Positions 8,700 to 18,963 of a DNA stretch of 64,000 bases are shown piece after piece. Below the pieces are notes generated by a model, which did no database searches, was not told the origin of the DNA, and was given only the letters and a program-made list of their open reading frames with translations. Source of the DNA: Coriobacteriia bacterium (GTDB lineage Bacteria; Actinomycetota; Coriobacteriia; WRKU01; WQUG01); the NCBI GenBank assembly GCA_009779855.1, contig WRBC01000002.1, positions 111,011 to 175,010 on the forward strand, given 5' to 3'. The position numbers and the translations under genes are program-made. The stretch's first letter is position 1; each line of letters begins with the position of its first letter.

Positions 8700-8720
8700 C
8701 CTTTGGTGTTTCTAGCCCGG

Positions 8721-9485
8721 CTACCATGCGCGACCTAGTGTAGCTACGCGTACTTCTTGTGCGCCTGCCTTTAGTAGTGCTTGTGTGGCGGCTTCTGCTG
8801 TTGCGCCTGTGGTGAAAACATCATCAATAAGCAGGATTTTGCGGGGAAGAGGCGAATAATGATTCTGCGTGCTGGCACTGGTGTAGTCTTTTGCATTTAT
8901 TTTGTCCATGATGCAGGTAAATTGTAGCGAGACCTCCTTTCGTTGCTTTCGGGAGAGCCCTCTTTGATCATGGTTGTCTAACTGTTTTTGACGGACGAGC
9001 AGGGATATGGAGGGCAGATTCAGAAGGTGGGCAGAGCTGCACGCAAGCAGTTCCCCGTGATCAAATCCGCGTCGCTTCAGCGCTTCTTTTGTGGAGGGTA
9101 TCCAGCAGGCTGCTTCTGCCCACGTCCCCCAGTTGTCTTGGATACACTTTGCTAAAAGAGTCCCGAGTAAACGGGCAAGTCTTCGCTCATTCGCATCTTT
9201 GTATAGCACGATTGACCGTGCAAGTGAACCATCCAGTATGCCTAGGGAAAGCGCGGCAGTAAAGCTATATTCTGTTTCCCAGCACTCAGTGCAGGTTAGG
9301 GCTCCGTAAGGTCCTGCACATTTAGGACAGGCTTGTTCTTGTAGATAACTTTGTTGAAGGCTCTCTAGACATTGGGAGCACAGGAGGATTCCCTGTCTCT
9401 CGCATCCAGCACAGCGTGTAGGAGCGATGAGCTCCCCCAAAGCCATTCCTATACTTGAGTTTAAAACCCTACCTGCTAACTTCAT
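8721..9485 (-). CDS. comF: ComF family competence protein (double zinc ribbon + PRTase domain)
   Basis: Four CxxC pairs, RRGFDHG, LLIDDVFTTGAT. Confidence 0.88.
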   Translation of the reverse strand: MKLAGRVLNSSIGMALGELIAPTRCAGCERQGILLCSQCLESLQQSYLQEQACPKCAGPYGALTCTECWETEYSFTAALSLGILDGSLARSIVLYKDANERRLARLLGTLLAKCIQDNWGTWAEAACWIPSTKEALKRRGFDHGELLACSSAHLLNLPSISLLVRQKQLDNHDQRGLSRKQRKEVSLQFTCIMDKINAKDYTSASTQNHYSPLPRKILLIDDVFTTGATAEAATQALLKAGAQEVRVATLGRAW

Positions 9486-9491
9486 GCTTTT

Positions 9492-9497
9492 ATCCTA
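9492..9497 (-). promoter_or_regulatory. -10 box (TAGGAT) of a probably leaderless comF promoter
   Basis: TAGGAT lies 6 nt before the ATG; no Shine-Dalgarno sequence. Confidence 0.55.
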
Positions 9498-9506
9498 GCA
9501 AGCGAC

Positions 9507-9605
9507 GATTCGAGCCTGATTAAGCTGTCAGTAAGTGTGCGTTAAGTCTTGATTAAAGCAGGATTAAGGCAAGGTTAAACGAGGATTAAGTCTTGATTCA
9601 GGGCG
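9507..9605. repeat. Array of 8-9 degenerate 11-bp direct repeats (GRTTAAG core) upstream of comF
   Basis: Cores at 9520, 9531, 9542, 9553, 9564, 9575, 9586, 9597, an exact 11-bp period. Confidence 0.8.
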
Positions 9606-9619
9606 TCTTTAACTATTTC

Positions 9620-9643
9620 AAAGCGGTCGAATTCGACCGCTTT
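9620..9643. repeat. Perfect 24-bp palindrome AAAGCGGTCGAATTCGACCGCTTT
   Basis: Directly visible, with no loop. Confidence 0.9.
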
Positions 9644-9689
9644 ACACTATCTTTAATTGGCTTCAAAGGTGATTTCTGTCCAATGAGTG

Positions 9690-9695
9690 TATAAT
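9690..9695 (+). promoter_or_regulatory. -10 box TATAAT of the raiA RNA promoter
   Basis: Consensus hexamer 7 nt before the 5' arm of the RNA's closing stem. Confidence 0.6.
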
Positions 9696-9701
9696 TGCTC
9701 T

Positions 9702-9962
9702 GCCTTCGCGCGGGTCTGTGGTTGCGTTTGTTTTGCTGGGCAAGACAAGTTAGTTCATAGGTAGGTGCGGCCGAAAGAACCCACGTAAGCACATCACTCG
9801 ACAGGAGGATGTGTGAGCATGGCGCACCTTAGGGGTAAGTCGTACCGTCTGCAGTCTGGCATATGTCAGGTAAACGGGCGAGAGGACTAGTCGTGAGATA
9901 GTATCAAGCTAACGTCCCGGTACGCGAGTGTGGGGTCAAAGATCAGGTCAGCCGCGCGAAGG
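9702..9962 (+). ncRNA. raiA motif RNA
   Basis: Closing stem CCTTCGCGCGG (9703-13) / CCGCGCGAAGG (9952-62). Conserved raiA blocks in the expected order: TGTGGTTG, CCACGTAAG, GAGCATGG, TTAG..GTAAGTC, GGCGAGAG, GTGAGA, GCGAGTGTGGGGTCAAAGATCAGGTCA. Flanked by comF and a substrate-binding-protein gene, both known raiA neighbours. Confidence 0.88.
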
Positions 9963-10077
9963 TATTCTTTATTACCCTAGCCTGATATCAGTTTAGTCTG
10001 CATTAGCTCAGCCTTCATTCATTATTTAACCTACATCAATTAGCATGCCTGAATCGTTTTGCTTTGTGTTTTCTTGT

Positions 10078-10142
10078 TGCATAAAATTTTAGATAAACGC
10101 ATAAAACTACATATAACAAAATGTGAAATGTATATTTAAGCA
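10078..10142. promoter_or_regulatory. Putative ARG boxes (ArgR sites)
   Basis: TGCATAAAATTTTA (10078), CGCATAAAACTACA (10098, 20-bp period) and TGTATATTTAAGCA (10129), upstream of a polar amino-acid ABC operon. Confidence 0.4.
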
Positions 10143-10247
10143 AAAAATTGCACTCAAATTAAAATTGTGGAAGAATACTATACCTATGAAGTAGAAAATA
10201 AGGCACAGCGCCATGTTGTGTCATCAGCTGTACGAAAGGTGTGAATC

Positions 10248-11111
10248 ATGAAAAAGCGTTTACTTATGCTAAGCCTTGCTGCAATCCTTGTGCTTTCTGC
10301 ATTTGTTCTTGTGGGATGTAACCAAGAAGAGGAAGCCCCTGACCTGGATGCAGGGTCAGACAGTAATGTTGAGACTCATATCGCCCTTGCCGATGTGGTT
10401 AGCGGGGATGGTTTAACTATAACGGTTGCTACTGAGCCTACGTATCCTCCCTTCCAGTCTAGGGAAGGCGGCGAAGTTGTTGGGTTTGACATTGACCTAG
10501 TCAAGGCAATCGCTGAAGAGCTAGGCGCAGAAGTTGAGTTCACTTTCCTTGAGTGGGACGCACTTCTTACAGCACTTAGTGCAGACAGTCGTGACTTTGA
10601 TTTTGCTGCAAGCGCTATGACGATTAGACCAGACCGTGCAGAGACAATCCTCTTTTCAGATCCTTACTTTGTGTCTGTCCAGGCTTTAGCTGTTCCTTCG
10701 GATTCAAGTGTAAATTCCATAGCCGATGTAGGTGAAGGCTTTAGGGTTGCCGTGCAAAACGGTACGACAGGACACATCTTCGCTACTGAAAACCTAGAAG
10801 AGAAGGGTGCGGTTGTAAGACCGTATCAAGGCGGTCAGGAATGTTTTCTTGCCCTAGCATCAGGGGAGGTTGATGGCGTTATCATCGACCTTCCTGTAGC
10901 AGTTAACCAGGCTGCGCTGGGTGACTTTGACTTGAAGACTATTTTGATTCCTCAGGCAGACCAAGAGCACTTTGGCCTAGCGTTTGGCAAGAGCAGAACT
11001 GACCTTGCCTATGCAGTTAATGATGCCCTGGCAGCTATTATTGCCGATGGAACCTATGCAGAGATTTATGCACGCTGGATTGATGCAGACAACGATCCTG
11101 TAATGCCATAG
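10248..11111 (+). CDS. Polar amino-acid ABC transporter substrate-binding lipoprotein
   Basis: Lipobox LVGC, TYPPF, GFDIDL, FSDPYF. Confidence 0.92.
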   Translation: MKKRLLMLSLAAILVLSAFVLVGCNQEEEAPDLDAGSDSNVETHIALADVVSGDGLTITVATEPTYPPFQSREGGEVVGFDIDLVKAIAEELGAEVEFTFLEWDALLTALSADSRDFDFAASAMTIRPDRAETILFSDPYFVSVQALAVPSDSSVNSIADVGEGFRVAVQNGTTGHIFATENLEEKGAVVRPYQGGQECFLALASGEVDGVIIDLPVAVNQAALGDFDLKTILIPQADQEHFGLAFGKSRTDLAYAVNDALAAIIADGTYAEIYARWIDADNDPVMP

Positions 11112-11127
11112 GAGAATACTTCTTACC

Positions 11128-11973
11128 ATGTGGACTAATTTTGTTGAGTGGTGGGAATCCTTCTCTATCCTGCGGGTGTTCTTTTCACCTACAGTAGCTA
11201 TAGAGACGTTTCCCATTGTGTTACAAGGATTTCCCATCACTTTGGTTCTTGGGTTTGTGGGCTTTGCTCTAGCTATTCCCGTTGGACTTGCTCTGGCGTT
11301 CATGAAAATGAGCAAGGTTGCCCCCTTGCGCTGGGTTGCAACTGTTTACGTTGATATTATTAGAGGAACGCCCCTGTTACTGCAGATTCTTATTATCTAC
11401 ATGGGGCTTCCTCTTATCCCTGCTTTTCAGGCGGCAATGGAGCCCTTTGCGGATGTTTCTGTGCTAGGTGTTCCTTTTTCTGCTTGGTTTCGCGCTTTCC
11501 TGATTTTGTCCGCAAATTCTGCTGCCTATCTGGCAGAAATTTTCAGAGCAGGCATTCAGTCTATTCCAAAAGGTCAAATGGAAGCGGCTAGATCTTTGGG
11601 AATGCGGATTCCGGCAGCCATGGCCTTTGTTATCCTTCCGCAGACAATTAGGCGTATTCTTCCGACCTGTATGTCGGAGTTTATCCTACTATTGAAAGAT
11701 ACGGCCCTCTTTGCCATGGTGGCAATGGGTGAAGTTATGTTACAGGCGCGTGTTGAGTCCGCTCGCGTGTTTAATATGACGCCTCTTACGGTTGCTGCGA
11801 TATTTTATCTGATTGTGACCATCCCTGCTGGTAGAATGGTTGCTAGGCTAGAAAACAAGTTAGCGGAGCAAGATTCAGGAGCGGCGCAGCCAGGCAAGCG
11901 TAGCCCGCGTCTTAATGTTCCCTCGACTCATGTAGTTAGCCACAGGGAAAATACTATGCAGGACGTTAGGTAA
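11128..11973 (+). CDS. Polar amino-acid ABC transporter permease
   Basis: RGTPLLLQ and [23 protein letters not shown] (EAA loop). Confidence 0.93.
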
Positions 11974-11978
11974 CCGCC

Positions 11979-12719
11979 ATGAGCGAAGCAATTGTAAAAA
12001 TAAGAAATCTCAAAAAAACCTTTGGCAGCGAAGAGGTGCTACACAACATCAATCTTGAAGTTGATAAAGGTGAAGTTGTCTGTGTGCTAGGACCTTCAGG
12101 TAGCGGCAAGTCCACTATGCTGCGCTGCATTAACCTATTAGAGGTGCCCACCTCTGGTGAGGTTTGGGTGAATGATACTCAGGTTAATGCAAAGGGCACT
12201 GACATCAATAAGGCACGCGAACATCTGGGTATGGTTTTCCAGCAGTTCAACCTTTTTCCTCATAAGACTGCACAGGGCAATGTCGAGCTTGCTTTGCGTA
12301 AAGTGCGCAAGATGTCAAAAGAAGAAGCTAGCTCTATCGCCAAAGAGCAATTAGAACGTGTAGGTCTGGCAGAACGTGCAGATTTTTATCCTAGCCAACT
12401 TTCTGGTGGCCAGCAGCAGCGCGTGGCCATCGCACGAGCACTCGCCATGGAGCCTACCGTTATGCTGTTTGATGAAGTTACTTCAGCACTTGATCCAGAG
12501 CTTGTTCGTGATGTTCTTAATGTTATGCGTGATCTTGCGCAGGCAGGCATGACCATGATAGTGGTGACTCACGAAATGGGGTTTGCTCGTGATGTGGCAG
12601 ACCGTGTGGTATTTATGGATGGCGGATCAGTTATCGAAGAAGGGTCTCCTGAAGACATCTTTGAAAATCCAAAAAATGAACGTACAAAGGACTTCCTGGG
12701 TCACTTAAGCGAATCATAG
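11979..12719 (+). CDS. Polar amino-acid ABC transporter ATPase (GlnQ-like)
   Basis: [29 protein letters not shown]. Confidence 0.94.
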
Positions 12720-12721
12720 TT

Positions 12722-13672
12722 TTGATTTCACCTAACAATAAGCCTGGCAAGTTGAATAAGCCTGAACTTTTAGCACCCGCTGGAAGTATGGAGGCTTTAA
12801 AGCTCGCTATTGACTGTGGGGCGGATGCTATCTACGGCTCTGGGATGAGTTTCGGTTTGCGTTATAATGCAAAGAATTTCTCTCTTACTGATTTGCGTAA
12901 AGCGGTAGAGTATGCCCATGGTCGGCAACGCCGATTCTACCTTGCGGTCAATGCACTTATTCACGAGTCAGATCTTGCCTCGCTAAAAGAATATCTTCTT
13001 GCGGCAGGGGAGACGGGCATTGATGCCTTTATTATTTCTGACCTAGGTGCAGCAGTCTTAGCAAGAGAGGCTGCCCCGCATGTTGCGCTGCACGTTAGTA
13101 CTCAAGCTAGTGTCGCGAATTCTGCTAGTGCAGAAGCATGGCATGAAATTGGAGCAAGACGCATTATCGCAGCGCGCGAGCTATCCCTGCGTGAGCTAGC
13201 CGAGATGAAGAAGGATATGCCGACTGACATGGAGCTTGAAGTTTTTGTTCATGGGGCGCAGTGTATGGCTGTAAGTGGGCGTTGCATCATTAGCAATTAT
13301 CTTGCACATCGTGATGCAAATAAAGGTCAGTGTGCTCACAGTTGTCGCTGGGATTATCAGTTGGTAGAGAAAAAGCGCCCCAATGAGTATCTGCCTGTGA
13401 TTGAGGAGGATGGTCATACCTCAATCTTTAGCCCCTATGACCTTAATATGATTGAACACCTTGATGACCTTGTCTCTGCAGGGATTGATAGTTTCAAAAT
13501 TGAGGGACGAACTAAAGGCGTCAACTATATCTCTACTGTCGTCTCAGCCTATCGCGCAGTCCTGGACGGGGAAGAGGCAAAGCAGTATGTTGAAGGACTC
13601 CGCGCTCAGACCCCGCGTCCCCAGGGAACGGGGTTCTATTATGGCTATCCGCAGCAAAATTATCGTAACTAA
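12722..13672 (+). CDS. Peptidase U32 family Fe-S protein (TrhP-like)
   Basis: PELLAPAG, EVFVHGAQCMAVSGRC, CAHSCRW, FKIEGR. Confidence 0.85.
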   Translation: MISPNNKPGKLNKPELLAPAGSMEALKLAIDCGADAIYGSGMSFGLRYNAKNFSLTDLRKAVEYAHGRQRRFYLAVNALIHESDLASLKEYLLAAGETGIDAFIISDLGAAVLAREAAPHVALHVSTQASVANSASAEAWHEIGARRIIAARELSLRELAEMKKDMPTDMELEVFVHGAQCMAVSGRCIISNYLAHRDANKGQCAHSCRWDYQLVEKKRPNEYLPVIEEDGHTSIFSPYDLNMIEHLDDLVSAGIDSFKIEGRTKGVNYISTVVSAYRAVLDGEEAKQYVEGLRAQTPRPQGTGFYYGYPQQNYRN

Positions 13673-14343
13673 AGAATGATTTCTTTAAGCTGGGAAGTGC
13701 CTGTATTTCCGCCAGGACAGACAAAGAGTCGCTCTGTCGCTGGGCCTACGAATAGAAATGACGATTTTTGTTTAGGGTTAATGAGGCCTGCTTCAAAAAG
13801 CTGCGTGTGAAAGCTCTGAGCAATGTCAAGGTTTAGTTCGCTCAGTTGCTGGTCTTCTCGGAATGTTAATTTGAGATATGCCTCTGTGGGGAAGGGAGCT
13901 GTGTGGTCAAGGCTTCTATCGCTGTCTTGAATGTGCTGCACTTCAGAATAACCATTAGAGAAGCTGCTTCTGGTAGGTAAATCGTAATGAATACTTCCTG
14001 CTATAGAGCTCTCTGCTCCGAAAACTTGAGGGAGTATTTCTGCTAGCTTAACGCCTGCTGCCCTTTCCAATTTAGCTGCAGCTATCCGGTCTTTTTGACC
14101 ACCAATTCTCTCGCTGATAGTGACTGTTGGTTCTTTACTAAAATCATTCTTTCTAGCATGGGTTATCTGTTCTTTTTGTTGGTCTGAACCTAGGGTCATT
14201 TGGCTTACGGCAGACTGAGTGTAAAAGATTATGAGCGCCGAGGCTAGCAAAATAACTATCAAACATCCGAGCATCATGAATTTTTTAATGGTTGGGGAGG
14301 GTAGAAAGTCTTTCTTGTTCATGTCTTTATTTTTGCGCTTCAT
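13669..14343 (-). CDS. Hypothetical protein with an N-terminal membrane anchor
   Basis: ATG 14343 with AGGAG RBS overlaps the end of the upstream adhesin gene; one hydrophobic segment. Confidence 0.6.
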   Translation of the reverse strand: MKRKNKDMNKKDFLPSPTIKKFMMLGCLIVILLASALIIFYTQSAVSQMTLGSDQQKEQITHARKNDFSKEPTVTISERIGGQKDRIAAAKLERAAGVKLAEILPQVFGAESSIAGSIHYDLPTRSSFSNGYSEVQHIQDSDRSLDHTAPFPTEAYLKLTFREDQQLSELNLDIAQSFHTQLFEAGLINPKQKSSFLFVGPATERLFVCPGGNTGTSQLKEIIL

Positions 14344-17300
14344 GTTTTTTCTCCTTATCTCTTTTCCTAACAGCAAGCTCTAGCAGTGCAAAGACCCCTG
14401 CGCACGCTGCTGCCAGTGCCAAGGCAAACCAAAATCCTCCATTATTTTGATCTCCTGTTTTTGGGGAATGCGGTATAAGCGAACCGCCTTTTTCCTGGGT
14501 ATTCTCCGTACTTATTTTGCTGTTCGTATTGGGGCTAGTATTCAATGCCAAAGGGTTATCTTTGTCGTTTTTGGAGGTGTCTCTAATGCTCTCCCGGGAA
14601 GTCTCGTCTCCAGTGTTCCTGTTACCGTCCTCATGCGTAAAGGAGTCAATAAGGCGCGTCTCTACCTTATCCCTGTCATCATCTTTGAGGTTAATGTTGC
14701 GTGTGATATGTGAACTGGCAGAATTTAAGATGATATTTTCTAGACCTGTTTCAGGGTCATACTTCTCTATAGGATGCGGACAGTAGACTAGATAGGATAG
14801 AGGAGCAAGACCAGCAGCGTTGGCAGACTCTTCACTGTAGAAGCGATCATCTATCTCTGGGTTCCACTCATTATCATTTTTACTCGTGAATCCTTTTTCT
14901 ACCCGTCCGTACTCTAGCTTAATCGCTGTAACATGTTCATTGTCTTCTAGATTTAGGTCTGATACGGCCAGTCGCAGTCTCTTGCCTGCATCAAGGTCTT
15001 CCTGCCATAACTTCCACCCCTTATTGTCAAAGCGCATTATCTTTTCAGGATTAGCAGGATTGCGCTCATCCTTGCTGGCTGCAATGCTGTCAGAATACAT
15101 TGTTGTTTCGTCGCTTAGATTTGTCTGGTACCACAGGTTGTAAAGACCGTTAGAGTCTCCCCAGACGACAGGAGTCCAGAGCTCTTCTATGCGGATTTGA
15201 CCTGCGTTGACCCCCTCAAGGTAGTCGATGACCACATATTCATCTGCCCAATCATTTGAAGTAGACCTAAAGTTGACATCGTAACGGTAAAGTTCTTTAC
15301 TACCCTGTGCACTGTTGTCGATTTGCGCTTCACCAGGTAATGATTTGTATCCTGCAGAAGTTATCTTGATAGTATGCTTGTCAACCTCACATGAGACAGC
15401 AACAGGTTCATTTTCAACCTCTACTTCACTCCAGACTATGGCTGTATGTTGATCCTTGTACTTCAACTCAATATTGAAGATTTTTGGACTAAGTAAGTAC
15501 CACGGGTTTGCCTTAGCCTCTACTAGTTCATAGTCCCCTAGATAGAGGGAGATGCTTTCGGCTACGCCCTTTTCATTGGTGATAAGTACATCAGCTACAT
15601 CCCCTGCAGTCAGACGCACAGAGCCATCACTTGTGACGATGTCCTTTTTTGCTCGCAGTTCAAACACTGTTTCGGTCACAGCGCTTGCAGTAATACTGTC
15701 GACCTTCATCACGCGCACTTTACCCATTGCAGGGTAGTTGTCTATGCTCACAACCAGAGGGTCTGTCCAGTGATGATCTGTGTTTACTTGGAAGGCTATA
15801 GGTTCTTCTAGTAAAAGATATCCATCCGGTGCTTGTACTTCTTTTAGATAGTACGTTCCAAACTTGAGTGGTTCTGGTAGATTAATCTGCCCTGTTTCAT
15901 CGGTGGTAAAAGTGCTAATTGTTTGTGTGTGAGGAAAGTTTATAGTGAAACTCATCAACCTCATATCTTTGTCAAAGATTTGAAATTGGGTTCCCGCTAA
16001 TGGTATGACCTTTCCTGTTTCTGCATCACGCTTTACGATACTTATTGCAGCAGTAATCTCATGATTTACTAGATGATAGCGCTTCTCCACACCGTTTTCG
16101 TCTACGCTGAACTTCATATCGTCGATAGGCCTTAAACCTTCTGGGGTAGACGCAGGGTCTTCGTGCAAGATGTAGTCACCGTATTCAAGAAAGCCACTAC
16201 TGAAGTCTTTGGTTCCCCATTGCGACCGTGGTGGGATGAGGTCGCGACTTGTCGCAAATCCCTCCCTGTCCGTGGTTAGCGTTGCCACAATCTGACCATA
16301 GCGGGGGTTAGCCCTTCCATCTCCATTCCTTGGGGTGTCGTCAATAATGTGAAAGCGGACTTTTTCCAGTGGATGAATCAGGTCTCCATCAGGCGCAGTG
16401 TATTTGCGTAGAGCTATGTCTCCGCGGATAATCTGTTCGTTTATGCGAGGAACTACATTATGTAGTGATATCTCTATTGGACGATCAGCCCCACCGGAGT
16501 CTGCTACGTTGAAGCTGCGCCAATTGGCGAACTCTGGATCAATCAAATAACCTTCAGGTGCTTTTACTTCACGAATTTGGAAGGTTCCGATAGGTATGCC
16601 TGGCATAGAAGCCCCCGTGGCACGATATTCAGCATGACCTGAGGCATCAGTTATAAGCTGCTGTGTTCTCCAGCCGTCAGGAGCTGAGGAGTCTGCCCAG
16701 CGAATCTCAAACTCTGCTCCAGCTAAACTGGCCCCGCCACTTGCAATGGCTTGTCCTGTTTCCTTATCAACCTTGCGAATATTAAGATCTGTTCCGTAGC
16801 GACGAGCATCGCTTGAACTTACACGTCCAATGCTGGGGCTACTTGTCCCCGTTGGGACCAGTACGACTCTATGAGTAGTTGCGTCCAGTATGTGTCCAGC
16901 CGGAGGGATAATCTCTTTAATGAAGTAATCTCCCATCCGCAGTCCGTCAAGACCTGCTGCTCCCTGGACATTAGTGGTCATCCTGCCTACATAAGAGGTA
17001 TGACTTGTATTTTTCGTATCAGCTGCAGAACTATTGGTCCATACGCCATAAACGGCACCAGCAAGACTGTAGGCAGAATTCCCTGCAATACTTGCACTAG
17101 AGATAAAGTTCCCAGGAGAGGTTGATTGCTTATTTAGTTCAATACGTCCAATGGGTTCAGGTTCGTTATGTATTGCTCCTGCGAGATAACTGGGCAGAGA
17201 ATTGTTGGTTGCTTCGGAATCATCTCCGCCTGTGGGGGTTACAGATAAAACAGTGGCATTAAGTAAATATCCTGGGGGTGCACTGATTTCTCTAATGTAG

Positions 17301-18139
17301 TAACTGCCGCCAGCAGGAATACGATACCACCAGGCATTCCCGTCGGATCCTGAGGTGCTTGACTGGATAAAGCTGGGGCTACTGGTGTTTCCGCTAGCTG
17401 CTGCTGCGCGACTAGTCCATATGCCGAAGGTAGCCCCAGCAAGGGGGGCATTGCTATGAGCGTCGCGTTTTTGAACGCGTATACGTGAAGTAAGTGGGTC
17501 GCCCTGGGACAAGACCATTCTTTGCACATTGCTATTTGATGGGGGAATATAAGGCCAATAGCGATTAAGCTGAACGCTACTGCTGCTTAAGGCCCGACTT
17601 ACTATCCAGGAGGACGCCCTCCAGTGGTCGGTGCTTGTGCTGTATTCGGAAAGGTTCTCACCTTGAATTCTGAAGATTGCTAGCTGAACTGCCATGCGCC
17701 ATTCAATATTTGTGAGCGCTATTCCATTGATAGTTGTTCCGCCAGAAGTTGTGGTGGGGCCTAAATCTAGTGCGATAGAAAGAGCACGTCCCTCGCTACT
17801 TGTCGCTCTAGACAACTTTGTTCCGCGGATCATTTCCAGGTTGTAAGGAGCCGCCCTTCTGAAGTCGAGACAATATGCAGCCGCAGTTCCCGAATTATGC
17901 ACAGGTATCCCTACGTGGCTGCTTTGTGTATTGAAAGTGCGTCGCTGTGCGGGTACGGCAGACAGTGCAAGTGATGGCACAATTGTCTGTATAAGCAAAA
18001 TACTGAGTAGTGTCATCAATACTATTGCTGATGAACGCCTAAAAGGAAGAGGTGGTAGTATTGTTCGCCCTTTCTTATGCCTTGTTCCATATGGCCATGA
18101 GGTCATGTGATTATGAGAAGGCGTGATTGCTTTAATCAT
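14327..18139 (-). CDS. Sortase-anchored surface adhesin: N-terminal thioester (TED)-like domain + about 6 SpaA/CnaB isopeptide domains
   Basis: Signal peptide; YCLD, VQLAIF and VQRMV motifs; repeated Y/F-x-x-x-E-x-x-A-P-x-G-Y E-boxes; SPKTG + TM helix + basic tail. Confidence 0.85.
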   Translation of the reverse strand: MIKAITPSHNHMTSWPYGTRHKKGRTILPPLPFRRSSAIVLMTLLSILLIQTIVPSLALSAVPAQRRTFNTQSSHVGIPVHNSGTAAAYCLDFRRAAPYNLEMIRGTKLSRATSSEGRALSIALDLGPTTTSGGTTINGIALTNIEWRMAVQLAIFRIQGENLSEYSTSTDHWRASSWIVSRALSSSSVQLNRYWPYIPPSNSNVQRMVLSQGDPLTSRIRVQKRDAHSNAPLAGATFGIWTSRAAAASGNTSSPSFIQSSTSGSDGNAWWYRIPAGGSYYIREISAPPGYLLNATVLSVTPTGGDDSEATNNSLPSYLAGAIHNEPEPIGRIELNKQSTSPGNFISSASIAGNSAYSLAGAVYGVWTNSSAADTKNTSHTSYVGRMTTNVQGAAGLDGLRMGDYFIKEIIPPAGHILDATTHRVVLVPTGTSSPSIGRVSSSDARRYGTDLNIRKVDKETGQAIASGGASLAGAEFEIRWADSSAPDGWRTQQLITDASGHAEYRATGASMPGIPIGTFQIREVKAPEGYLIDPEFANWRSFNVADSGGADRPIEISLHNVVPRINEQIIRGDIALRKYTAPDGDLIHPLEKVRFHIIDDTPRNGDGRANPRYGQIVATLTTDREGFATSRDLIPPRSQWGTKDFSSGFLEYGDYILHEDPASTPEGLRPIDDMKFSVDENGVEKRYHLVNHEITAAISIVKRDAETGKVIPLAGTQFQIFDKDMRLMSFTINFPHTQTISTFTTDETGQINLPEPLKFGTYYLKEVQAPDGYLLLEEPIAFQVNTDHHWTDPLVVSIDNYPAMGKVRVMKVDSITASAVTETVFELRAKKDIVTSDGSVRLTAGDVADVLITNEKGVAESISLYLGDYELVEAKANPWYLLSPKIFNIELKYKDQHTAIVWSEVEVENEPVAVSCEVDKHTIKITSAGYKSLPGEAQIDNSAQGSKELYRYDVNFRSTSNDWADEYVVIDYLEGVNAGQIRIEELWTPVVWGDSNGLYNLWYQTNLSDETTMYSDSIAASKDERNPANPEKIMRFDNKGWKLWQEDLDAGKRLRLAVSDLNLEDNEHVTAIKLEYGRVEKGFTSKNDNEWNPEIDDRFYSEESANAAGLAPLSYLVYCPHPIEKYDPETGLENIILNSASSHITRNINLKDDDRDKVETRLIDSFTHEDGNRNTGDETSRESIRDTSKNDKDNPLALNTSPNTNSKISTENTQEKGGSLIPHSPKTGDQNNGGFWFALALAAACAGVFALLELAVRKRDKEKKHEAQK

Positions 18140-18172
18140 CGAATCTTCCCGTTAAACTTTTGAAGTGGATGT

Positions 18173-18178
18173 ATCATA
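18173..18178 (-). promoter_or_regulatory. -10 box (TATGAT) for the adhesin gene
   Basis: GCTATGAT about 34 nt upstream of the ATG, compare GCTAGGAT at comF. Confidence 0.5.
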
Positions 18179-18187
18179 GCGAAATTG

Positions 18188-18275
18188 GACTAAAGCCCAG
18201 CAAAGTTCTGGTTAAGGTAGGATTAAGTAAAGGTTAAGTGGGGATTTCATAATGATTAACAGAATGCTAAAACAG
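18188..18275. repeat. Second 11-bp-periodic GRTTAAG array (8 units)
   Basis: Cores at 18190, 18201, 18212, 18223, 18234, 18245, 18256, 18267. Confidence 0.72.
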
Positions 18276-18330
18276 CACTGCTTGGTGTGCTATCATGGGC
18301 GTGGATTTTTAACATGAAAGGTACGGAATA

Positions 18331-18963
18331 ATGAACATAATTTTACTAGGTGCTCCAGGGTCAGGAAAAGGCACACAGGCTGCAAAGCTAGTTGAGGCTT
18401 TTGGGTTAGTTCACATATCAACGGGTGATATGTTGCGTGCGGCGGTAAGCGCCAGTACACCACTGGGCGTCGAGGCAAAGAAATATATGGACGCGGGTGA
18501 CCTTGTTCCTGATGAACTTATTATTGGCCTTATCAAGGACAGGTTAAAAGAAGAAGATACTGAAAAAGGTTTTATTCTGGACGGATTTCCGCGTTCGACT
18601 TCACAGGCTATTGCTCTGGATGAGCAGCTCGCAGAACTTAAGCGCACAATTGATGTGGCGATTGCTATCGATGTGGATGCAGAGGTTATTGTGAATCGCA
18701 TCAGTACGCGCCGCTTTTGTCCTGCTTGTGGTAGGAGCACTAATGCCTCTGAAGGGGAGTATTGCATTATTTGTGGATGTGCTCTTGAAGTGCGTGCAGA
18801 CGATAAGGAAGATGTCGTACGTAAGCGACTGAATGTTTATGAGCAAAATACCGCCCCACTTATTGATTATTATCGTGGTAAGGGTATTTTGCGCTCTATT
18901 GACGGTGATCGCCCTGTTAGTGTGGTCTGGGAAGATGTGGAAAAGATAGCCTCGGGCGACTAG
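18331..18963 (+). CDS. adk: Adenylate kinase (zinc-lid type)
   Basis: GAPGSGKGT, ILDGFPR, CPAC...CIIC lid. Confidence 0.96.
   Translation: MNIILLGAPGSGKGTQAAKLVEAFGLVHISTGDMLRAAVSASTPLGVEAKKYMDAGDLVPDELIIGLIKDRLKEEDTEKGFILDGFPRSTSQAIALDEQLAELKRTIDVAIAIDVDAEVIVNRISTRRFCPACGRSTNASEGEYCIICGCALEVRADDKEDVVRKRLNVYEQNTAPLIDYYRGKGILRSIDGDRPVSVVWEDVEKIASGD

Follow-up and report, generated by a model that had tools for sequence, protein, structure and literature searches.

Phased 11-bp repeat arrays at DNA-uptake, adhesin and toxin-antitoxin promoters point to a possible competence switch in a termite-gut member of the Coriobacteriia

Two repeat arrays upstream of comF and an adhesin gene

The stretch of DNA that we analyzed (64,000 nucleotides, "the window") is from a termite-gut bacterium that is known from metagenomes only, a gut anaerobe with a 1.5-Mb genome and 47% G+C. 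In two places, a leftward gene with a divergent neighbor is preceded by an array of 11-bp units:

8721..9485, minus strand: comF (254 amino acids; the name is taken from the earlier note)
9492-9499, minus strand: extended -10 of comF, ATCCTAGC (G-C-TAGGAT), with a 7-nt spacer up to 9506
9507..9605, minus strand: array 1, 9 units of 11 bp upstream of comF (PWM segment score 69.2 bits, the top of the genome)
9705..9960, plus strand: raiA RNA, the divergent neighbor of comF, outside the predicted regulon (RF03072, 146 bits, gathering score 101.3)
14327..18139, minus strand: adhesin gene (1270-amino-acid surface protein), the predicted target of array 2
18173-18180, minus strand: extended -10 of the adhesin promoter, ATCATAGC (G-C-TATGAT)
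18181-18187, minus strand: pyrimidine-rich 7-nt spacer between the adhesin -10 box and unit 1
18188..18275, minus strand: array 2, 8 units of 11 bp upstream of the adhesin promoter (PWM segment score 52.8 bits)
18288..18296, plus strand: candidate extended -10 of adk, T-G-C-TATCAT, read from the sequence; it starts 13 nt past the distal end of array 2
18331-18963, plus strand: adk, divergent from the adhesin gene, called by eye from its P-loop N-terminus

Relatives of comF are present in all 41 of the Coriobacteriia genomes that we searched, and its closest named records are from Coriobacteriia MAGs (36-39% identity). The start codon of comF lies 6-7 nt after the box in five genomes (G000, which is the genome studied here, and G002, G003, G006, and G007), and in G000 it is 6 nt after the hexamer. 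This spacing predicts a leaderless mRNA, and if so, the box is a real -10. The identity of the divergent raiA RNA, which had been named from the sequence in an earlier note on this DNA, agrees with the Rfam match. Past the distal end of array 1, and before the raiA promoter, there is a perfect 24-nt palindrome (9620..9643), which is a candidate terminator or operator.

Array 2 has the core GRTTAAR (followed by N4) on the plus strand, which is CTTAATC-like on the transcribed minus strand. Units 3-5 are perfect and units 2 and 6 are weak. All eight units that had been reported are present, letter for letter, at 11-nt steps. The start codon of the adhesin is 41 nt past the G of the -10 box. The adhesin has a signal peptide, five SpaA (prealbumin-fold) domains (Pfam, E ≤ 0.01), and a C-terminal SPKTG motif followed by a hydrophobic stretch and a basic tail. 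It had been labeled as a thioester adhesin, but Pfam detects no thioester domain at E ≤ 0.01. The divergent arrangement of adk and the adhesin gene is kept in G001 and G002.

The arrays are in a fixed register with the -10 box

The first unit begins 15 nt past the start of the box at each locus, so the offsets of the cores are identical. This agrees base for base with the common register, relative to the leftward -10 boxes, that had been described for comF and the adhesin gene. Compared in register, the two arrays agree at 33 of the 56 positions in the cores, 12 of 32 in the spacers, and 31 of 100 in the flanks. Because the spacers and flanks are mostly different, the arrays do not derive from a recent duplication, as the earlier note had also argued.

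The same architecture is found across the genome. In 11 of the 12 arrays that score at least 20 bits, G-N-TANNNT occurs exactly 7 nt after the box-proximal unit. These 11 in-register arrays all share G(-14), T(-12), A(-11), and T(-7), and the distance from the 7-nt core to the TANNNT hexamer is always 9 nt. The number of units per array in G000 varies from 4 to 9. The arrays end 7 nt short of the box, and they never cover the -10 or the predicted start site. We found no -35/-10 pair of the sigma-70 type for either leftward promoter (comF or adhesin). If transcription starts 6-7 nt past the box, then the two proximal units span about -39 to -18. Since the heptamers are exactly 11 bp apart, they all face roughly the same side of the helix.

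The signal is in the phasing

Three analyses of G000 show that the arrays exceed chance. First, the score for a 6-unit consensus was 38 of 42 at period 11, versus maxima of 28-30 at periods of 9, 10, 12, or 13. Second, a search anchored on TAGC gave 8 sites scoring at least 18 at an offset of 11 and 0-3 sites at other offsets. Third, the real genome had 12 PWM clusters of at least 20 bits, versus 0, 0, 0, 0, 0, 0, 0, 1, 1, and 1 in ten Markov-1 genomes. Five of the 11 in-register arrays (those upstream of tad, comEA, vanY, gp49-xre, and the prepilin peptidase) were not in the training set for the PWM. With 17 occurrences in the window versus 16 expected, the single word GRTTAAG shows no enrichment, so the signal is the phasing rather than the word. 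TRF detects the comF array only; array 2 is too degenerate for it. A 43-bit match at period 10 was rejected as an ordinary tandem repeat elsewhere in the genome. A 3-unit match on contig 12 (at about 24472) has no -10 and seems to be a chance look-alike.

We also compared the window to contigs from four termite-gut DNA runs. Run X3 contributes two long contigs over both arrays, and run X8 contributes a 269-nt contig over the comF array; the other two runs have no listed piece over the arrays. The X3 and X8 contigs have no listed differences within the arrays, which is uninformative about constraint or copy-number variation, and the nearest single differences are at 8969 and 18059. Among RNA runs, none was listed for positions 8700-18400 of the window.

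Predicted regulon

The 11 in-register arrays precede five DNA-uptake loci, the adhesin gene, four toxin-antitoxin pairs, and an operon with vanY, a response regulator, and a histidine kinase. The DNA-uptake loci are comF, comEA-comEC, yraN-comM-dprA, the only tad/Flp pilus operon, and the gene for a prepilin peptidase. These five loci comprise all of the DNA-uptake machinery that our searches identified. Pfam supports YraN, ComM, DprA, ComEA, ComEC, and the peptidase (A24) in these array-bearing operons. Within the tad operon, Pfam identifies CpaB, a TadZ-like protein, TadA, and TadB/C, while a Flp-like protein is below the cut-off and TadE is weak. The genome has one T2SSE ATPase (the one from the tad operon) and one ComEC. 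The toxin-antitoxin pairs are of type II, with Pfam support for HicAB, BrnTA, HigBA, and Gp49/XRE.

The earlier note had suggested searching the genome for such arrays and asking if they are enriched upstream of DNA-uptake or pilus genes, and with five of the 11 in-register arrays at such loci, they are. The regulon is wider than had been proposed, since a two-component operon and four toxin-antitoxin pairs belong to it as well. One common cis-element precedes comEA, comEC, comF, dprA, and the uptake pilus, which is the pattern by which we would recognize a competence regulon. We predict that the eleven promoters form one natural-competence program that is coupled to surface adhesion, and that this bacterium may be transformable. 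Since neither vanY nor toxin-antitoxin pairs are among the classical competence genes, the program may exceed competence. A search of G000 (93% complete) for the ComK (PF06338) and TfoX_N (PF04993) families found no member at E ≤ 0.01. The arrays point to a previously undescribed master switch of natural competence in this group.

Conservation and turnover of the motif

Across 41 genomes, a 3-unit pattern had 18 matches in G000, 23 in G002, 3 in G003, 6 in G007, and 0-1 in each of the other 37; the reversed pattern, as a control, matched once in G012 and nowhere in the other 40. We read nine loci in G002, G003, and G007, and eight of them have the same anchor. These loci precede yraN-comM, comF, cpaB, two toxin-antitoxin pairs, and a topA-like gene (with a TAAC anchor), and at one locus no ORF was found. 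The comF array is kept in G001, G002, G003, and G007, and the adhesin array is kept at the orthologous promoters of G001, G002, and G003. The idea that one control element links comF and the adhesin gene, which was first put forward from the two loci in the window, is supported by this conservation.

The sister genus (g3) uses a different heptamer (GGTAAG) with the same register and the same set of genes. The pattern KGTAAG-N5-KGTAAG has 20, 2, and 21 matches in the genomes of this genus, versus 2, 1, and 0 for the control. These sites precede yraN-comM, comEA, cpaB, comF, an adhesin-like gene, and toxin-antitoxin pairs, and the TAA core is equally far from the -10. The arrays in g3 have two or three units. 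Autocorrelation at lag 11 in the regions upstream of yraN detects only long arrays, those of genera g1 and g2, and short arrays were read directly.

The composite pattern is absent upstream of yraN in 19 of 29 cases, comF in 22 of 29, and comEA in 25 of 29. In genus g11 of family f5, the yraN promoter alone matches (in 3 of 3 genomes, with 22-bp spacing) and we did not find a second convincing site. A strict pattern with 22-bp spacing, searched in families f5 and f8, identified the yraN promoter in three genomes, and its other matches were no better than the reversed control. Since this search found only yraN, the regulon is demonstrated no further than family f1. When we scanned 80 distant ComF loci for the heptamer of G000, there was just one weak match (L066); the heptamer is lineage-specific.

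Comparison to known systems

The regulons of ComK (K-box) in Bacillus, SigX (cin-box) in streptococci, Sxy-CRP (CRP-S) in Haemophilus, and TfoX in Vibrio likewise have one cis-element upstream of comEA-comEC, comF, dprA, comM, and pilus genes. Known competence elements are promoters for an alternative sigma factor, palindromes, or pairs of AT-boxes. In contrast to the K-box, cin-box, and CRP-S types, the element described here is a phased array of direct repeats that is fused to a -10.

Pho boxes, which are bound by PhoB/OmpR-type regulators and by PhoP at the multi-repeat sites of Streptomyces, are made of 11-bp units with 7 conserved and 4 variable bases. They are tandem direct repeats that lie about 10 bp upstream of the -10 and replace the -35, and extra repeats add cooperative binding. 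The unit layout and the placement are shared with our arrays, but our arrays are longer. The regulon here is also unrelated to phosphate, and the candidate receiver-domain regulator is present in few genomes (see below).

SARP regulators bind direct repeats with a spacing of 11 or 22 bp, of which the 3' one lies 8 bp away from the -10, and the afs box spans -40 to -19, according to the accessible part of a published account (PMC10936776). As far as that account goes, the promoters of AfsR/afsS, ActII-ORF4, and DnrI resemble ours in having direct repeats at 11 or 22 bp, although we see an excess at period 11 only; the gap between the repeat and the -10 is 8 bp there and 9 nt here, and in both cases the -35 is missing or poor. 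SARP promoters are otherwise of the housekeeping-sigma type, as are these, and a SARP-fold protein is encoded in this genome. SARP sites have two or three repeats, versus four to nine in G000, and a different heptamer. The targets also differ: SARPs control antibiotic clusters, while the arrays precede DNA-uptake, pilus, adhesin, and toxin-antitoxin genes.

There is precedent for parts of the predicted regulon. The competence regulon of Haemophilus influenzae also includes a toxin-antitoxin pair, according to the available portion of one report (PMC6957337). Micrococcus luteus, another member of the Actinomycetota, uses a tad/Flp pilus, and not a Com/type IVa pilus, for DNA uptake with comEA/comEC (PMC4322843, available portion). 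That system resembles the one predicted here in combining an actinomycetotal tad pilus with comEA/comEC, but the available portion reports no repeat-array promoter. A study of M. luteus from January 2026 states that the upstream signals and the regulators of transformation are still to be identified (PMC12849477). The earlier note knew of no described competence regulator for this lineage. Our literature search agrees: outside of motif lists in supplements, which were beyond its reach, it found no such arrays and no competence regulator described for Coriobacteriia or other Actinomycetota.

The control of natural transformation in Actinomycetota is an open question, and we now have a sharp cis-element, a complete predicted regulon, and two candidate regulators. 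With these, the control of competence in Coriobacteriia could be examined in reporter and binding assays. Cultured and genetically tractable Coriobacteriia exist, as the accessible part of a report on tools for Eggerthella lenta describes (PMC9734109). If our proposal is correct, a SARP-type mechanism would extend from antibiotic regulation to horizontal gene transfer, and in an unusual long, phased, multi-site form. Judging from the predicted regulon, the competence state may also have adhesion and toxin-antitoxin activity wired into it.

A TPR-SARP protein is the likeliest binder

We propose that the arrays are the upstream half of activator-dependent promoters of one competence/adhesion regulon, with a TPR-SARP protein as the most likely binder. 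Given the architecture and the comparisons above, we consider this probable. Each promoter would consist of four to nine CTTAATC-like heptamers, then 7 nt, then G-N-TANNNT, with no -35. On the two proximal units, at the position that winged-helix activators of the SARP and PhoB types occupy, the binder would offer a protein surface to region 4 of the housekeeping sigma factor, in place of the -35 hexamer. Further units would load extra protomers side by side, which could give a cooperative, switch-like response. Transcription is predicted to start 6-7 nt past the box.

The candidate is:

contig 4, 110817-112958: TPR-SARP candidate regulator (714 amino acids)

This is the sole protein in G000 with a BTAD domain above the Pfam cut-off (PF03704, 72.4-77.4 bits, cut-off 22.1). 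Residues 20-445 form a TPR-like helical solenoid, and the SARP part spans roughly residues 455-714. Trans_reg_C scores 16.8-19.8 bits, which is below Pfam's cut-off of 26.2. Using phmmer, residues 22-257 of the C-terminal part align with the whole SARP domain of AfsR (E = 1.9e-7, the best match in PDB). A structural model (pLDDT 84.7) superposes on the SARP domain of AfsR with a TM score of 0.74-0.75 over 261-266 columns, and it also superposes on EmbR. From the alignment to AfsR and the superposition of the model, we judge that an OmpR-type winged helix lies directly before the BTAD domain. The order of domains in AfsR is SARP-NOD-TPR, while in this protein it is reversed, with the SARP domain at the C-terminus, unlike described SARPs. 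The TPR solenoid is plausible as the signal-sensing part.

The TPR-SARP protein is single-copy in 40 of 41 Coriobacteriia genomes. In G007, a 59% complete genome with arrays, we did not find it. The protein occurs in far more genomes than the motif can be demonstrated in. The stretch with the recognition helix differs between the two motif classes, but the genomes compared are few and related, and phylogeny is a confounder. We also considered synteny with comF, but in family f5 the two genes are about 11 kb apart with eight unrelated genes between them (G016), so we rejected this weak argument. Overall, the TPR-SARP protein is the likeliest binder by our assessment; the link is circumstantial, and we view the arguments for and against this particular assignment as about evenly balanced.

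The main alternative is that the binder is the OmpR/PhoB-type response regulator from the array-bearing operon with vanY and the histidine kinase. It would then be autoregulated, and the kinase would supply the inducing signal. This regulator (280 amino acids) has a receiver domain and a winged helix joined by a long linker. Regulators of the OmpR/PhoB family recognize 11-bp direct repeats that stand in for a -35, and positive autoregulation is common in competence and two-component switches. The operon of this regulator has an array of 5 units with an in-register box. Also, the sequence upstream of the vanY operon is nearly identical between G000 and G002 and is recognizable in G007 and G001. 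However, this array is the weakest in-register array except for the peptidase's (24.6 bits for 4 units), and the genome encodes five other OmpR-type regulators. Orthologs of the regulator with at least 79% identity are found in G001, G002, and G007 only, while arrays are also found in G003 and, with the other heptamer, in G004, G008, and G009. In G003 (78% complete), the best match is just 39% identical, and in genus g3, which has the same regulon and the same geometry, the best matches to it are about 50% identical and cover the receiver domain only. We therefore think that this regulator is unlikely to be the binder.

The arrays could instead be operators or architectural DNA, either by bending from phased TTAA or as a coat of a nucleoid-associated silencer or repressor, so that the genes stay off until the coat is shed. 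For a genome with 47% G+C, the arrays have a relatively high AT content, long arrays look more like coating than like the site of a dimer, and toxin-antitoxin pairs and adhesins are presumably among the classes of genes that are often silenced. But the G and the C or R that flank the core are conserved, and the heptamer changes across genera while its register with the -10 does not shift by a single base, which curvature alone would not need. Furthermore, the arrays stop 7 nt short of the box and leave the -10 and the start site uncovered, and a search of the genome for the Lsr2 family gave no match. Without a -35, these promoters would need help rather than hindrance. We consider silencing or bending very improbable.

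Finally, chance likeness or non-regulatory remnants of duplicated or mobile sequence would be in keeping with the lack of enrichment of single heptamers in the window, the 3-unit match on contig 12 without a -10, and the near-identity of the three proximal units among promoters in G002 (which could hint at the spread of a cassette), but we dismiss this explanation because simulated genomes had 0-1 arrays instead of 12, 11 of the 12 are in register with a -10, the spacers and flanks of arrays 1 and 2 are unrelated, and orthologous promoters in other genera keep the arrays.

Returning to the TPR-SARP protein, the various observations can be joined in a broader reading. This class-wide, single-copy protein would be the first competence master regulator in Actinomycetota. 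It would receive a signal via its TPR part and polymerize on up to nine heptamers, which would yield an ultrasensitive switch for DNA uptake, a covalently anchored adhesin, and toxin-antitoxin pairs (attach, pause growth, and take up DNA). The heptamer would have drifted along with the recognition helix, while the geometry stayed fixed. We offer this reading tentatively, as a possibility that is somewhat more likely to be wrong in some part than right as a whole.

In G000, G001, G002, and G003, there is no array near the TPR-SARP gene, which counts against the link to this protein, and a different conserved element is found there. In favor of the link, a GGTAAG array is present about 285-320 bp upstream of the gene in the three genomes of genus g3 (3 of 3 genomes, which amounts to about one independent event). 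In G000, the sequence upstream of the gene includes a small hairpin that contains two heptamers.

Two phased arrays in the window

The earlier note described runs of 11-bp units (a heptamer core plus 4 nt) upstream of -10 boxes at two genes, comF and the gene for an adhesin. The features are:

8721-9485, minus strand: comF
9492: box of the comF array, ATCCTAGC (8 nt; G-C-TANNNT on the lower strand)
9507-9605: comF array, nine 11-nt units
14327-18139, minus strand: adhesin gene (1270 amino acids)
18173: box of the adhesin array, ATCATAGC (8 nt; G-C-TANNNT on the lower strand)
18188-18275: adhesin array, eight units

All eight units listed for the adhesin locus match the sequence exactly, in 11-nt steps. 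The proposed common register holds to the base: at both loci, the first unit starts 15 nt past the start of the 8-nt box. We also agree that neither array is a copy of the other (33/56 core, 12/32 spacer, and 31/100 flank positions are identical when the two are aligned in register). The signal is the phasing rather than the single heptamer. By itself, the heptamer shows no enrichment across the window (17 occurrences vs. 16 expected). A consensus of six units scores 38/42 at period 11 versus 28-30 at periods 9, 10, 12, and 13, and a TAGC-anchored scan gives eight sites scoring at least 18 at offset 11 and 0-3 sites at every other offset.

A perfect 24-nt palindrome (9620-9643), which may act as a two-way terminator or as an operator, sits between the raiA promoter and the far end of the comF array. 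At its own far end, the adhesin array stops 13 nt before a putative -10 box for the divergently transcribed adk (distal unit and box, 18265-18296), so a protein filament on this array could also touch the adk promoter.

Eleven arrays in the genome

We searched the assembly (1.54 Mb, 47% G+C, 15 contigs, with the window on contig 2) with a position weight matrix that was trained on 42 units from six arrays. Its consensus is G-R-T-T-A-A-R followed by four uninformative positions. The top in-phase segments at period 11 score 69, 58, 53, 51, 47, 42, 34, 34, 29, 27, 23, and 23 bits, with background below. The reversed matrix and other periods reach at most 24 bits, except for a 43-bit match at period 10, which comes from a simple tandem repeat unrelated to the arrays (10-nt unit, about 8 copies, contig 3 near 72608-72690, outside the window). 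Clusters of four-unit windows with at least 20 bits number 12 in the real genome and 0-1 in each of ten Markov-1 genomes. Downstream, 11 of the 12 have the same anatomy on the transcribed strand: the last heptamer, 7 pyrimidine-rich nt, and G-N-TANNNT, whose G, T, A, and final T never vary among these 11 in-register arrays. (Five arrays lay outside the training set.) The twelfth cluster, with three good units at 24472-24500 of contig 12 (outside the window), has no in-register -10 box and is probably due to chance.

Genes behind the eleven array-bearing promoters
comF
yraN-comM-dprA, then a 235-amino-acid gene without a family
comEA-comEC
tad operon: cpaB, a TadZ-like gene, tadA, and two tadB/C genes; also a Flp-like pilin gene (below the Pfam cut-off), several small unknown genes, and a weak TadE-like match
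prepilin peptidase (A24)
1270-amino-acid adhesin
HicA/HicB
BrnT/BrnA
HigB-like/HigA-like
Gp49-like/XRE
operon of a VanY-type carboxypeptidase, an OmpR-type response regulator, and a histidine kinase

The tad-type ATPase and comEC are each single in the genome and both lie behind arrays; therefore, the element precedes every identified DNA-uptake and DNA-processing gene. This bears out, genome-wide, the enrichment at DNA-uptake and pilus genes that the earlier note had suggested looking for. The programme may exceed DNA uptake, because toxin-antitoxin pairs, vanY, and the adhesin are also present. A family search of the genome found no ComK or TfoX proteins.

The adhesin has a signal peptide, five SpaA domains (the only domains found in a Pfam scan), and a C-terminal SPKTG motif, which looks like a sorting signal, followed by a membrane-spanning basic tail. 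Its single cysteine (residue 90, near the N-terminus) has the context Y-C-L-D, which we take to resemble the cysteine motif of thioester domains.

Boxes as -10 elements and a possible mechanism

The extended -10 element of actinobacteria is TANNNT with a G two bases upstream, and we found no sigma-70-type -35/-10 pair at either leftward promoter (comF or adhesin). The G-N-TANNNT boxes are, judging from their sequence and position, probable -10 elements, and the comF spacing is the strongest internal evidence. In the source genome, the ATG of comF starts 6 nt past the hexamer (9485-9499), and the start codons of its orthologues in four relatives (G002, G007, G003, and G006) are 6-7 nt past their boxes. 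Because this spacing recurs in five genomes, we predict that the comF mRNA is leaderless, with transcription starting on the start codon. Transcripts without a leader are common in the phylum. Short leaders, with a purine run that resembles a Shine-Dalgarno sequence, precede the adhesin gene and yraN.

PhoB-type pho boxes follow the same logic as SARP sites. If the start is counted 6-7 nt after the hexamer, then unit 1 (nearest the box) lies at about -28 to -22 and unit 2 at about -39 to -33, and with their spacers they cover -39 to -18. SARP sites are reported to be direct repeats at 11- or 22-bp spacing, the 3' one being 8 bp from the -10, and the afs box of AfsR to span -40 to -19, where two side-by-side protomers contact sigma region 4 (PMC10936776). 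The two positions agree within one base pair. Given this fit and the parallel with pho boxes, we read the arrays as putative class-II-like activator sites that replace the -35 element. The mean score is lower for units 1-2 (6.0 bits) than for units 4-5 (8 bits), which suggests that the proximal units may be shaped by polymerase contacts and that the distal units may be high-affinity loading points. Long arrays would give cooperative, switch-like occupancy.

Conservation and motif turnover

The source organism is a member of the Coriobacteriia that lives in termite guts. We scanned 41 Coriobacteriia genomes with a three-unit pattern (up to 3 mismatches), which has 18 matches in the source genome, 23 in G002 (same genus), 3 and 6 in G003 and G007 (sister genus g2), and 0-1 in the other 37. 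The reversed control has no matches in 40 of the 41 genomes and one in G012. At 8 of the 9 loci that we read in G002, G003, and G007, the box is in the same register as in the source genome. The genes there are yraN-comM (two genomes), comF, cpaB, two toxin-antitoxin pairs, and a topA-like gene; at one locus we found no ORF. The strict pattern overlooked G001, where comF, yraN, and the adhesin are preceded by arrays in which weaker units alternate. At the adhesin, the array counts about nine units in both G002 and G003 versus about seven in G001, and the divergent arrangement with adk is retained in G001 and G002. The comF, yraN, adhesin, and toxin-antitoxin promoters of G002 (loci L088, L093, L097, L100, L122, and L197) have nearly the same sequence over the three units closest to the -10 box and their spacers, which suggests concerted evolution or the spread of a promoter cassette.

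In genus g3 (G004, G008, and G009), the units of the orthologous promoters are GGTAAG, two or three per promoter and 11 bp apart, and the distance from the TAA core to the -10 hexamer equals that in the source genome. KGTAAG-N5-KGTAAG occurs 20, 2, and 21 times in the three genomes, versus 2, 1, and 0 times for the reversed control. These pairs precede yraN-comM, comEA, cpaB, comF, an adhesin-like gene, and HicAB-, VapBC-, and XRE-type pairs: in g3, the same gene set stands behind another heptamer. The adhesin-like and toxin-antitoxin promoters of g3 share an extra conserved element of about 25 nt directly upstream of two GGTAAG units (G004 and G009; compared at L210, L224, L226, L228, L232, L219, L221, and L223); competence-gene promoters have a third unit in its place.

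A composite pattern (a pair of TAA cores spaced 11 or 22 bp, then 9 nt, then G-N-[TC]ANNNT) was chosen after inspecting the data, so its counts are descriptive only: it matches 10/29 yraN upstream regions (0.03 expected from shuffles), 7/29 for comF (0.02 expected), and 4/29 for comEA. The matches include families f3 and f5. In genus g11 of f5, only the yraN promoter matches (3/3 genomes), with no second convincing site. Hence, we consider the predicted regulon well supported in family f1 (genera g1, g2, and g3), with only traces outside it.

Candidate binders

A profile search of the source genome found six OmpR-type regulators and exactly one protein above the BTAD cut-off. This TPR-SARP protein (714 amino acids, contig 4: 110817-112958) adjoins secA and prfB, is preceded by three tRNA genes, and is labelled in databases only as [quoted passage not shown] or "SARP family." The best PDB sequence match of its C-terminal 259 residues is the SARP domain of AfsR (E = 1.9e-7), with EmbR next. 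In its AlphaFold model (pLDDT 84.7), residues 20-445 form a helical solenoid with general similarity to TPR proteins, and residues ~455-714 superpose on AfsR (TM 0.74-0.75) and EmbR. The domain order is opposite to that of AfsR.

We think there is about an even chance that this protein binds the arrays. One copy is present in 40 of the 41 genomes; it is absent only from G007, which is 59% complete. The stretch aligned to the recognition helix of AfsR has one sequence in the source genome, G002, and G003, a variant in G001, and a different sequence in g3. All three g3 genomes have an array of 2-3 GGTAAG units about 285-320 bp upstream of the gene, which points away from it, beside tRNA genes, and lacks an in-register -10; g1 and g2 have no array at this gene. 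The helix variation and the g3 array hint at a link to the arrays, and are phylogenetically non-independent. The main rival, which we consider rather unlikely, is the OmpR-type response regulator within the regulon itself. Its own promoter is nearly identical in the source genome and G002 and recognisably retained in G007 and G001, but its close orthologues are confined to G001, G002, and G007, and the TPR-SARP protein serves better as one orthologous binder for both motif classes. Some other protein takes the remaining probability.

Around the TPR-SARP gene, a conserved pair of GACAATT/GTCAATT-like words lies about 90-110 nt before the start (L132 2700-2725 on contig 4) and is common to G000 (the source genome), G001, G002, G003, and G005 (also L134, L135, L136, and L137); it is possibly an operator controlling this gene itself. 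About 290 nt upstream of the gene, between two tRNA genes, the source genome has a hairpin of two facing array-type heptamers (L132 2517-2535; 8-bp stem, 3-nt loop), at a similar distance as the true array of g3. In nine genomes (eight from f5 and one from f9), an orthologue of about 1100 amino acids is encoded on the same strand as comF, at a distance of about 11-12 kb; the interval in G016 (L203) contains an amino-acid ABC transporter, hpf, an HD-domain protein, and two unknown genes.

Relation to known systems

In a literature search of main article texts, we found neither arrays of this kind nor a regulator of competence described for Coriobacteriia or for other Actinomycetota. A 2026 paper describes competence regulators as still unknown in the phylum's model organism (PMC12849477). 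Activation, co-expression, start sites, the binder, and transformability are our predictions. The arrays would work like SARP and pho-box promoters. They differ from these in how many units they have, in which genes they control, and in how the domains of the candidate protein are ordered. The gene content is classical for a competence regulon. Toxin-antitoxin genes are also reported within the competence regulon of Haemophilus influenzae (PMC6957337), and the Tad/Flp pilus, which is part of the predicted regulon here, is reported to be used for DNA uptake by Micrococcus luteus (PMC4322843).
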